From a virus: a stretch of 23,544 nucleotides of DNA. A program made the position numbers and the translations under genes. The stretch lies in the UHGV virus genome UHGV-0332110, one strand, 5' to 3'. The notes beneath the pieces are model-generated. The model was not told the origin of the DNA. It worked only from the letters and a program-made list of their open reading frames with translations, and searched no databases. How positions within the stretch are numbered: position 1 is the first letter of the stretch; each line of letters starts with the position of its first letter. Positions 16,356 to 23,544 of this stretch are shown here, in pieces.

Positions 16356-16961
16356 TTACACTGGTGTGTTCAGCAAATCGTTAACGGCATCAGATGCCGG
16401 GTTACCTGCAGCCAGCGGTGCCGGTGCCCCCTGCATCAGACGATCCAGCGCAGTGTCACTGCGCGCCTGTGCACTCTGTGGTGCTGCGGCCAGAATGCGG
16501 CGGGCCGTTTTCACGGTCATACCGGGGGTTTCTGCCAGCACGCGTGCCTGTTCTTCGCGTCCGTGAGCCTCCTCACAGTTGAGGATCCCCATAATGCGGC
16601 TGTTTTCTGCCGCAACCGCTGCGGTGATCTGCGCGTTCACGTCCGGCTGCGCCGCGCTGGCGTTCTCGCCCTCCGTCGCTGGCACCACGTCAGTAACGTC
16701 AGCCTGCGAAGCAGTGGCTGAAACAGTTGTTGATTGAGTCTCTTTGGTCATTCGCCCTCCTGAGAGACGGGATTTACGTGCATCCAGTGCATCACGCATG
16801 ACGGTGATCGCATCGGTGCTGTTAACAAGTTCATCAGCCAGTCCGGCATCAATGGCCTCCTGACCGCTGTACACTGCAGCCTCGGTATCCAGCACAGCCT
16901 GCACGGACAGGCCGGTATATGCCGACACCTTCTGTGCAAACATCCGGCGGGTTGCATCCAT
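16356..16961 (-). CDS. Nu3: Scaffolding protein Nu3, from an in-frame internal start nested in the 3' third of C
   Basis: ATG at 16961 in the C frame gives MDATRRMFAQKVSAYTGLSVQAVLDTEAAV... (201 aa to the shared stop), the arrangement known for lambda C/Nu3. Confidence 0.8.
   Translation of the reverse strand: MDATRRMFAQKVSAYTGLSVQAVLDTEAAVYSGQEAIDAGLADELVNSTDAITVMRDALDARKSRLSGGRMTKETQSTTVSATASQADVTDVVPATEGENASAAQPDVNAQITAAVAAENSRIMGILNCEEAHGREEQARVLAETPGMTVKTARRILAAAPQSAQARSDTALDRLMQGAPAPLAAGNPASDAVNDLLNTPV

Positions 16962-17655: not shown

Positions 17656-17675
<20 letters not shown>
16356..17675 (-). CDS. C: Capsid assembly/maturation protease C (S49-family serine peptidase)
   Basis: GTG start at 17675 (minus) giving (M)TAELRNLPHIASMAFNEPLMLEPAYARVFFCALAGQLGIS..., 439 aa as in lambda gpC. 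The track's ATG-initiated 484-aa version (from 17810) would overlap 155 nt of B and is rejected. Confidence 0.9.
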
Positions 17676-21356
<3,681 letters not shown>

Positions 21357-21382
<26 letters not shown>

Positions 21383-21902
21383 TCAGCAACCCCGGTATCA
21401 GTTCATCCAGCGCGGCTGCTTTGTTCATGGCTTTGATGATATCCCGTTTCAGGAAATCAACATGTCGGTTTTCCAGTTCCGGAAAACGCCGCTGCACCGA
21501 CAGGGGGATCCCGTCGAGAATACTGGCAATTTCACCTGCGATCCGCGACAGCACGAAAGTACAGAATGCGGTTTCCACCACTTCAGCGGAGTCTCTGGCA
21601 TTTTTCAGCTCCTGTGCGTCGGCCTGCGCACGCGTAAGTCGATGGCGTTCGTACTCAATAGTCCCTGGCTGGAGATCTGTCTCGCTGGCCTGTCGCAGTT
21701 CTTCAACCTCCCGGCGCAGCTTTTCGTTCTCAATTTCAGCATCCCTTTCGGCATACCATTTTATGACGGCGGCAGAGTCATAAAGCACCTCATTACCCTT
21801 CCCACCGCCTCGCAGAACGGGCATTCCCTGCTCCTGCCAGTTCTGAATGGTACGGATACTCGCACCGAAAATGTCAGCCAGCTGCTTTTTGTTGACTTCC
21901 AT
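21357..21902 (-). CDS. Nu1: Terminase small subunit Nu1
   Basis: 181 aa, MEVNKKQLADIFGASIRTIQNWQEQGMPVLRGGGKGNEVLYDSAAVIKWYAERDAEIENEKLRREVEELRQ..., matching lambda gpNu1. N-terminal winged-HTH region that binds cosB. Confidence 0.97.
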
Positions 21903-22290: not shown

Positions 22291-22524
22291 ATGTCAACGA
22301 AGAACAGAACCCGCAGAACAACAACCCGCAACATCCGCTTTCCTAACCAAATGATTGAACAAATTAACATCGCTCTTGATCAAAAAGGGTCCGGGAATTT
22401 CTCAGCCTGGGTCATTGAAGCCTGCCGCCGAAGACTGTGCTCAGAAAAAAGAGTTTCGCCTGAAGCAAACAAAGAAAAGAGTGACATTACTGAATTGCTC
22501 AGAAAGCAGGTCAGACCAGATTGA
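22291..22524 (+). CDS. Small ribbon-helix-helix-like protein, YlcI/YnfO-like (DUF3950)
   Basis: 77 aa, MSTKNRTRRTTTRNIRFPNQMIEQINIALDQKGSGNFSAWVIEACRRRLCSEKRVSPEANKEKSDITELLRKQVRPD. Basic N-terminus, then an RHH-type pattern (beta-strand IRFP, helix NQMIEQINIALDQ, G-x-S/N turn, helix FSAWVIEACRRRL). The family name is from recollection of E. coli cryptic-prophage ylcI/ynfO, which occupy the equivalent position next to the terminase genes. No strong SD. Confidence 0.7.
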   Translation: MSTKNRTRRTTTRNIRFPNQMIEQINIALDQKGSGNFSAWVIEACRRRLCSEKRVSPEANKEKSDITELLRKQVRPD

Positions 22525-22581
22525 AGCAATTTAGATAATCGTGCAGACTAGGTACCTTCATATCACATGGAAGGTACTACA

Positions 22582-22995
22582 ATGGCTCAGGTTGCCATTT
22601 TTAAACAAATATTCGATAAAGTGCGAAATAATTTAAACTATCACTGGTTTTATTCTGAACTAAAACGTCACAATGTCTCACATTACATTTACTATTTAGC
22701 CACAGAGAATATTCATCTTGTTCTTGAAAACGATAATACGGTTTTAATAAAAGGACAGGGTAAGGTTGTAAATGTAAGATTTTCAAAAAATAAATGCCTT
22801 ATAGAAGCCACCTTAAAAGGATTCAAATCAGGAGAGTTATCATTTTACGAATACAGGAAAAATCTTGCTACAGCAGGGGTTTTCAGATGGATTACAAATA
22901 TCCACGAAAACAAAAGGTATTACTATACCTTTGATAATTATTCGCGGGGCTTTTTATTGCCATTACAAAAGCCACTTCCTACAGAGTGGCTTTGA
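22582..22995 (+). CDS. Hypothetical protein, YbcV-like (DUF1398), with a variant C-terminal tail
   Basis: Start preferred at ATG 22582 ([18 protein letters not shown]...) with SD-like GGAAGG 7 nt upstream; the track's start is the in-frame ATG at 22567. 137 aa from 22582, AT-rich. The C-terminal 18 residues ([18 protein letters not shown]) are encoded by a 60-bp segment at 22940..22999, outside the repeat shared with the inverted cassette at 23250..23419. The family label rests on recalled similarity to E. coli DLP12 ybcV and is tentative. Confidence 0.65.
22823..22939. repeat. Inverted repeat A, left arm (117 bp, 100% identical to the reverse complement of 23303..23419)
   Basis: tcaaatcaggagagttatcattttacgaatacaggaaaaatcttgctacagcaggggttttcagatggattacaaatatccacgaaaacaaaaggtattactatacctttgataatt was compared base by base with the reverse complement of 23303..23419 and is identical. 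It lies inside the DUF1398-like CDS (codons ...[38 protein letters not shown]). Confidence 0.95.
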
Positions 22996-22999
22996 TAAT

Positions 23000-23124
23000 G
23001 GCTTATACCCTACACGGGATAACTTAACTGATATCCCTTTTAAAGGATAAAGGTATTCAAGCCTGACACATCATGCGCTGTATCGTCGCCGTATTCCCGT
23101 ATTAACAGAGACCGTAGCCCGACG
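23000..23124. repeat. Inverted repeat B, left arm (125 bp, 100% identical to the reverse complement of 23420..23544)
   Basis: ggcttataccctacacgggataacttaactgatatccc...gtattaacagagaccgtagcccgacg is the exact reverse complement of the last 125 bp of the window. It begins immediately after the second copy of the direct repeat ctttgataat. Confidence 0.95.
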
Positions 23125-23249
23125 GGGAACTCCTTCTGCGCGAGTGTGTGGGAATAATCAAAAACGATGCACACCGGGGTTACCGGGTACACATATTTCA
23201 TCATGCCAGCGAGTCCGGTTCTGGCACGGAAGAAACCGGACGTTATGAT

Positions 23250-23419
23250 TTAGTGCGGAAATATTTGTGTAGTGTTCTGAATGTTCTCAGTAAAGAGTAA
23301 TGAATTATCAAAGGTATAGTAATACCTTTTGTTTTCGTGGATATTTGTAATCCATCTGAAAACCCCTGCTGTAGCAAGATTTTTCCTGTATTCGTAAAAT
23401 GATAACTCTCCTGATTTGA
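23250..23419 (-). pseudogene. Silent inverted 3' cassette of the DUF1398-like gene encoding an alternative C-terminus (no start codon)
   Basis: The minus strand through A' and 51 nt beyond translates in the gene frame as (V)[55 protein letters not shown]-stop (TAA at 23252..23250, minus). Upstream in that frame, inside B', is an in-frame TAG only 3 codons before A', and there is no ATG, so the fragment cannot be translated on its own. Confidence 0.7.
23303..23419. repeat. Inverted repeat A', right arm (117 bp)
   Basis: aattatcaaaggtatagtaataccttttgttttcgtggatatttgtaatccatctgaaaacccctgctgtagcaagatttttcctgtattcgtaaaatgataactctcctgatttga is the exact reverse complement of 22823..22939. Identity stops on both flanks. 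Confidence 0.95.
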
Positions 23420-23544
23420 CGTCGGGCTACGGTCTCTGTTAATACGGGAATACGGCGACGATACAGCGCATGATGTGTCAGGCTTGAATACCTTTATCCT
23501 TTAAAAGGGATATCAGTTAAGTTATCCCGTGTAGGGTATAAGCC
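23420..23544. repeat. Inverted repeat B', right arm (125 bp; reaches the window edge, so its true extent is unknown)
   Basis: Exact reverse complement of 23000..23124. It directly abuts A' with no spacer, whereas on the left A and B are separated by 60 bp and are in the opposite relative order. Confidence 0.9.

Follow-up and report, generated by a model that had tools for sequence, protein, structure and literature searches.

The right end of the prophage and its DUF1398 gene

The window, meaning the whole stretch of 23,544 nucleotides that was analysed, ends on its right in a DUF1398 gene with a replaced C-terminus and in DNA that repeats parts of the same locus in both orientations. Positions 1-22939 correspond to positions 1002-23940 of a complete lambdoid prophage in E. 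coli 30EVA1 (L002), with two mismatches and no gap; this prophage and the equivalent locus of E. coli PSS-08-1 (L001) served as the canonical references. Judged by its sequence, the host of the feature is an ordinary lambda-like E. coli prophage, and the right window end is an ordinary region of such a prophage. The genes that define the neighbourhood are the following:

17656-19257, minus strand: portal
19457-21382, minus strand: large terminase
21357-21902, minus strand: small terminase, nohD-like
22291-22524, plus strand: YlcI/DUF3950 gene
22567..22995, plus strand: DUF1398 (YbcV/YdfO-like) gene, an ORF matching PF07166, with its C-terminus replaced

Further to the left of the terminase and portal genes lies the remainder of a lambda-type head and tail module, and to the right of the terminases the cos region is followed by the YlcI/DUF3950 gene and then by the DUF1398 gene. 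Positions 16810 and 20489 are the sole differences from the 30EVA1 prophage across these 22.9 kb: at one of them the S49 head protease has A as residue 289 in the window but V in 30EVA1, and the other is silent and lies in the large terminase. A 107-nt direct repeat with 77% identity (857-963 and 989-1095), located in the tail-fibre region near the left end, is also found in the 30EVA1 prophage. Past the part shared with the window, 30EVA1 carries a porin gene annotated as ompC (L002 26235-27317) between the lysis genes and the Q antiterminator, a placement that is also seen in DLP12-type prophages, and the PSS-08-1 copy of the prophage is degraded and adjoins appY.

The DUF1398 ORF matches positions 1-112 of the 119-position PF07166 profile with E = 1.3e-39 and a score of 135 bits, where the cutoff is 22, and relatives of the gene have their start annotated at the ATG that lies at 22582. 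The canonical form of the protein (P0001) matches YdfO (PDB 2hh8) with E = 1.8e-68. Residues 1-125 of the window protein are canonical, and the final 17-18 residues are read from antisense intergenic DNA; the gene is a normal DUF1398 member with an accidental tail. The original prediction had regarded the present C-terminus as derived and the original tail as surviving only in an inverted cassette, and both points were borne out: aligned homologues carry SLLFTE[N/S]IQ[N/K]TTQI[F/L]P[H/R] where the window protein has its replacement, and within the window the canonical tail is encoded solely at 23250-23419 on the minus strand. None of the 120 DUF1398 matches listed, out of 1189, covers the last 18 residues, and the variant protein, looked up as an exact match from each of the two start codons, is not on record.

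Other aberrant forms of the gene were also encountered. The endings of two database proteins (P0003 and P0063) and of a window ORF at 23243-23377 on the minus strand are a +1-frame reading of the canonical 3' end, and frameshifted copies of the gene therefore circulate in public assemblies. Dozens of ENA contigs of about 3.5 kb (P0022-P0044 and others) encode DUF1398 variants of 135-205 aa with about 74% identity and varying C-terminal lengths; we would guess these contigs to be error-laden assemblies of nanopore lambda control DNA and not natural diversity.

Decomposition into three pieces of one locus

Comparison with the canonical locus decomposed the right end of the window into three pieces, which run forward, in reverse and forward again, with the following parts:

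22823..22939, plus strand: repeat A, the left arm of inverted repeat I2 and the final 117 nt of the forward gene copy that are still canonical
22939..22940: junction J1, L001 3400 (forward) joined to the reverse complement that starts at L001 3763
22940..23419, minus strand: segment 2, 480 bp, the exact reverse complement of L001 3284-3763 and of L002 23824-24303 (100% identity)
23000..23124, minus strand: repeat B, the left arm of inverted repeat I1, canonical DNA from downstream of the gene, reversed
23250..23419, minus strand: inverted, promoterless 3' gene fragment with the canonical tail, directly preceded by stops and lacking a Met
23419..23420: junction J2, the reverse copy (L001 3284) joined to forward DNA at L001 3579
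23420..23544, plus strand: segment 3, the right arm of I1, L001 3579-3703 (100% identity), cut by the window end

The window runs forward as far as L001 3400, which is codon 125 of the gene (...TFDN). Segment 2 derives from a stretch that begins 117 nt inside the DUF1398 (ybcV-like) gene and ends 363 nt past the break, and the jumps amount to 363 nt at J1 and 295 nt at J2. Both joins are blunt (gataatt/attcgcg at J1 and gatttga/cgtcggg at J2), with 0 nt of shared sequence and no base of ambiguous assignment, and no common restriction site or motif was found at the four breakpoints (AATT/C, GAAT/G, GGAT/T and CCC/C). Two forward copies that do not overlap are left by this arrangement, and 178 bp are present in the inverted copy only.

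Two perfect inverted repeats result, I2 of 117 nt (22823-22939 and 23303-23419) and I1 of 125 nt (23000-23124 and 23420-23544), the latter bounded by the window end. The cassettes are the overlaps between the three pieces, which is why A and A' as well as B and B' are 100% identical and interleave in the order A..B'..A'..B, a pattern that is beyond any simple inversion. In canonical order, repeat A closes the gene body and is followed by the canonical tail and a spacer of about 130 bp, then by repeat B and by attatcaaag, which opens a long hairpin; the terminator of the lysis operon, on the opposite strand, comes next. The annotation of ev099 lists a hypothetical 54-aa ORF with which repeat B overlaps.

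Alignment to the two references shows this forward-reverse-forward decomposition, and it accounts for all that the original prediction had described here, the pair of 10-mers included. The canonical arrangement is present in E. coli genomes and phages among the best matches listed, and the arrangement of the window in no record. The joins were sought in complete E. coli genomes, INPHARED phages, IMG/VR contigs, GTDB genomes and JGI metagenomes: BLAST of 81-mers across J1 and J2 gave 0 matches in 5426 complete E. coli genomes, and exact-pattern scans of viral contigs, GTDB genome contigs and metagenome contigs found neither join. Of the traits of fold-back rearrangements, the structure has the forward-reverse-forward order from one locus and has neither microhomology nor a quasi-palindrome at its joins.

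The 10-bp repeat, the hairpin and the terminator

The original prediction had singled out a 60-bp segment flanked by a 10-bp direct repeat and holding a hairpin at the stop codon. The features concerned are these:

22929..22938, plus strand: copy 1 of the 10-mer, coding for the conserved T-F-D-N of the DUF1398 gene
22940..22958, plus strand: 3' half of a terminator, attc-GCGGGGCT-TTTTATT, its 5' stem arm removed by J1
22959..23002, plus strand: native long hairpin of 7 + 10 bp, which holds the 8-bp stem; copy 2 of the 10-mer (22990-22999) is its outer 3' arm

Much of what had been seen was confirmed. The 10-mer CTTTGATAAT occurs at 22929-22938 and at 22990-22999, as had been reported, and the further copy that had been noticed at the border of the inverted cassette is its reverse complement at 23304-23313, that is, the gene's own copy within the inverted duplicate. 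The motifs aagccact (22969-22976) and agtggctt (22985-22992) are complementary, and the ORF at 22567..22995 ends with TGA (22993-22995) straight after this stem. A hairpin is therefore present at the stop codon as predicted, but it is larger than described: its arms (22959-22976 and 22985-23002) comprise 18 nt, not 8, with 89% complementarity, and the RNA is predicted to fold into a stem of 7 + 10 bp at -26.3 kcal/mol (z = -4.7). The same hairpin lies at L001 3701-3744 in the canonical locus. That it stands at the stop codon is an accident: the new frame ends at the first TGA it meets.

A 10-nt direct repeat at such spacing is unremarkable and on its own weak evidence; the window holds nine exact direct repeats of at least 10 nt at a spacing of at most 100 nt, against 2.2 +/- 1.4 in dinucleotide shuffles. 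Another of the nine pairs, TGCTCAGAAA at 22438-22447 and 22496-22505, lies 58 nt apart within the YlcI/DUF3950 gene and is probably meaningless. The gene carries the 10-mer in all of L001-L004, and in lambda (L005) it appears there as the reverse complement. The DLP12-type canonical locus has the 10-mer twice, as two inverted copies at a distance of 304 bp that bracket the gene tail, and in ev099, PhiR70_1 and lambda it occurs in the gene copy only. A hairpin sits at the same place in ev099 and PhiR70_1, where the stem is AAGCCCA/TGGGCTT instead of AAAGCCACT/AGTGGCTTT; this second hairpin behind the lysis-operon terminator hints, from three sequences compared, at a conserved structure between the convergent late operon and the DUF1398 gene. 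An Rfam search for a known RNA family returned just two chance matches to miRNA hairpins, far under their gathering scores.

The proposal that the 60 bp arrived as a small, possibly repetitive element with duplication of a 10-bp target site had an understandable basis, since 10-bp direct repeats do flank a 51-bp segment that is missing at the same position in homologues. A short direct repeat on both sides of DNA that homologues lack there is indeed what IS elements and MITEs leave behind. The likeness ends at this point. The 60-mer is the reverse complement of L001 3704-3763, which is native DNA starting 304 bp downstream of the first copy of the 10-mer, and it is no discrete insert, because another 420 bases of reverse-complemented canonical DNA follow it without a break. 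What comes after the second repeat is this inverted downstream region and not the gene tail. Nor is the second copy of the 10-mer a duplicated target, since it is an arm of the native hairpin and is already joined to the 60-mer at the native site (L001 3704-3713), so that the repeat pre-exists at the donor site. Comparison with homologues, one of the checks that had been suggested, thus gave a divided answer: the 60 bp are absent from them at this position, as expected for an insertion, but belong 304 bp downstream on the other strand. The search for other copies gave a plain one, the 60-mer being found in 996 of 5426 complete E. coli genomes at a median of one place per genome and a maximum of four, which is not the behaviour of a repetitive element; in the 12 records listed it lies in unannotated space. 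Read directly, the sequence of the 60-mer has no terminal inverted repeats. Whereas IS elements and MITEs are foreign DNA in multiple copies with a repeat created by insertion, the DNA in the window is local and single-copy and continues as inverted native sequence. The insertion reading is refuted by the decomposition, and we give it next to no chance of being correct.

The same 10-mer had also been suggested as a recombination core site, which would make it the crossover point of a programmed, shufflon-like inversion that swaps DUF1398 C-termini. Invertase-driven switching of C-termini is familiar from the Gin, Cin and Pin tail-fibre switches. The inverted pair that brackets the gene tail in the DLP12-type locus would suit such a switch, and intragenic inversions that recode proteins are known to exist (bioRxiv 10.1101/2023.03.11.532203). 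These invertons share with the window an inverted cassette that carries an alternative gene 3' end and short inverted repeats at its borders. In the window, however, the arms are duplicated (117 and 125 nt), which is not the product of an inversion between cores and cannot be reached by inversion alone. The joins also lie outside the 10-mers, J1 being 1 nt past copy 1 and leading to a point 50 nt beyond the other copy. The junction predicted for a simple inversion was found in 0 of the 5426 complete E. coli genomes, so that none of them showed the second orientation; in ev099, PhiR70_1 and lambda the 10-mer is confined to the gene. Finally, the annotation of the near-identical 30EVA1 prophage lists no recombinase gene within 40 kb of sequence around the locus, where the only recombination functions are Bet, Exo, NinB and RusA. 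A crossover at the 10-mer is very improbable on these grounds, and even taken together the insertion and inversion readings are highly unlikely. The 60-bp element bounded by direct repeats, or the core site, is not a real entity as described.

The 60-mer consists of the 3' half of the lysis-operon terminator and the conserved long hairpin. The intact intrinsic terminator reads AGCCTCGC-ATTC-GCGGGGCT followed by TTTTATT (L001 3771-3752, minus strand); J1 falls at the start of its loop, and the terminator was not detected in the window. The long hairpin had been put forward as a possible terminator of its own, and here folding spoke against it: the structure at 22959-23002 is stable and has no U-tract, and no terminator-like site was found there on either strand. 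Snap-back priming at the terminator hairpin was considered as an origin of J1 and rejected. Priming of the join by the hairpin would have kept the forward arm GCGAGGCT, but the arm that remains is GCGGGGCT, which is the far arm in reverse complement.

Origin of the rearrangement and its meaning

Read against its canonical relatives, the structure is a one-off fold-back rearrangement or a sequencing chimera and not a mobile element or a recombination site. The sequence is normal through the DUF1398 gene to codon 125, where it jumps 363 nt ahead onto the opposite strand, runs 480 nt backwards through the hairpins, the intergenic DNA and the 3' end of the gene, and after a second jump of 295 nt continues forward to the window end. 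We infer one event, in which a single molecule underwent two strand switches or was joined bluntly at two points; alternatively, a local fragment of 480 bp may have been captured in inverted orientation. The second copy of the 10-mer is the outer arm of the hairpin and only by coincidence the reverse complement of the T-F-D-N codons, and the new C-terminus is an accidental read-through to the first TGA.

We lean slightly towards a chimera, formed in vitro or during assembly at a putative contig end, over a natural feature of the phage, and would put its chances at about even. Two mismatches in 22,939 nt are followed by 480 nt at 100% identity on the minus strand and 125 nt at 100% on the plus strand, the rearrangement is confined to the last 605 nt, and its third segment is cut by the window end. 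J1 and J2 were found nowhere else in the collections searched, and the variant protein is likewise absent from the record, its tail being unmatched among the 120 homologues listed of 1189. The geometry is that of the predominant artefact of phi29 amplification, in which inverted, nearby, multi-switch chimeras prevail; inversion together with an intervening deletion accounts for more than 85% of the chimeras (PMC1855051). Chimeras of multiple displacement amplification (MDA; Lasken and Stockwell 2007, PMC1855051) resemble the window in their local intramolecular switches, in the inverted sequence, in the skip of a few hundred bases, in that several switches per molecule are possible and in copies identical to the template. 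The likeness is one of geometry and does not extend to the joins: both are blunt and without microhomology in the window, whereas complementarity of 2-21 nt marks over 70% of the junctions in MDA (PMC1855051). It also counts against a chimera that random library chimeras do not normally place two junctions in the same 500-bp locus, nor do they normally survive assembly. The position at the window end does not discriminate, because real inverted repeats of 117-185 nt also break short-read assembly. Hairpin-telomere read-through and a template/complement artefact of long reads were rejected as sources, since both give symmetric palindromes and the turn-rounds here are offset by 363 and 295 nt.

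The competing explanation, to which we would grant somewhat less than an even chance, is a genuine, recent and private fold-back in vivo, arising by a template switch during replication or by end-joining repair of a break in which a 480-bp sister fragment was captured in inverted orientation. A template switch would resemble an asymmetric tandem inversion duplication (TID) or a DUP-INV-DUP rearrangement, and a forward-reverse-forward order with switches within about 360 nt is the output of a two-step template switch at a fork. Both joins were assembled together in a 23.5-kb sequence that is otherwise near-identical to a finished genome (2 mismatches), which suggests good support for them in the sequenced DNA; an assembly would be expected to stop at inverted repeats this long; and the contig crosses cos, as would fit an origin from a prophage or a bacterium more than from amplified virions. 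In bacteria, template switching normally relies on microhomology or a quasi-palindrome, and neither was found at either join, which weighs against an event in vivo. TIDs have reportedly been described in Salmonella and E. coli by Kugelberg and colleagues; they usually measure kilobases, start from quasi-palindromes and turn up where copy number is under selection. The window shares with TIDs and DUP-INV-DUP the three segments of one locus in forward-reverse-forward order and the asymmetric join points, and it differs from TIDs in that its unit is 480 bp, its forward copies do not overlap and its joins show no palindrome or homology. The arrangement is, moreover, absent from the 5426 complete E. 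coli genomes and the other collections searched. The inverted arms show zero divergence, and the event was therefore very recent or not biological. A functional gain is not apparent either: the outcome is a dead gene fragment and a broken terminator, and there is therefore no sign of selection.

The main value of the locus is as a caution. Direct repeats around "extra" DNA, together with a hairpin at a stop codon, can mimic a mobile element or a recombination site, and one canonical relative was enough to expose these signs as by-products of a local fold-back at a sequence end. Annotators should accordingly take no new DUF1398 isoform, repeat element or invertible cassette from this record without read-level support. 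If the event did occur in vivo, the result would be a structural variant of minor weight, private to this prophage and affecting an uncharacterised gene, in which a homology-free double strand switch or fragment capture of less than a kilobase recoded the C-terminus of a DUF1398 protein and removed the lysis-operon terminator. It may then be, though we rate this as a little less probable than its opposite, a natural gene-scale rearrangement of the DUP-INV-DUP type in a bacterium.
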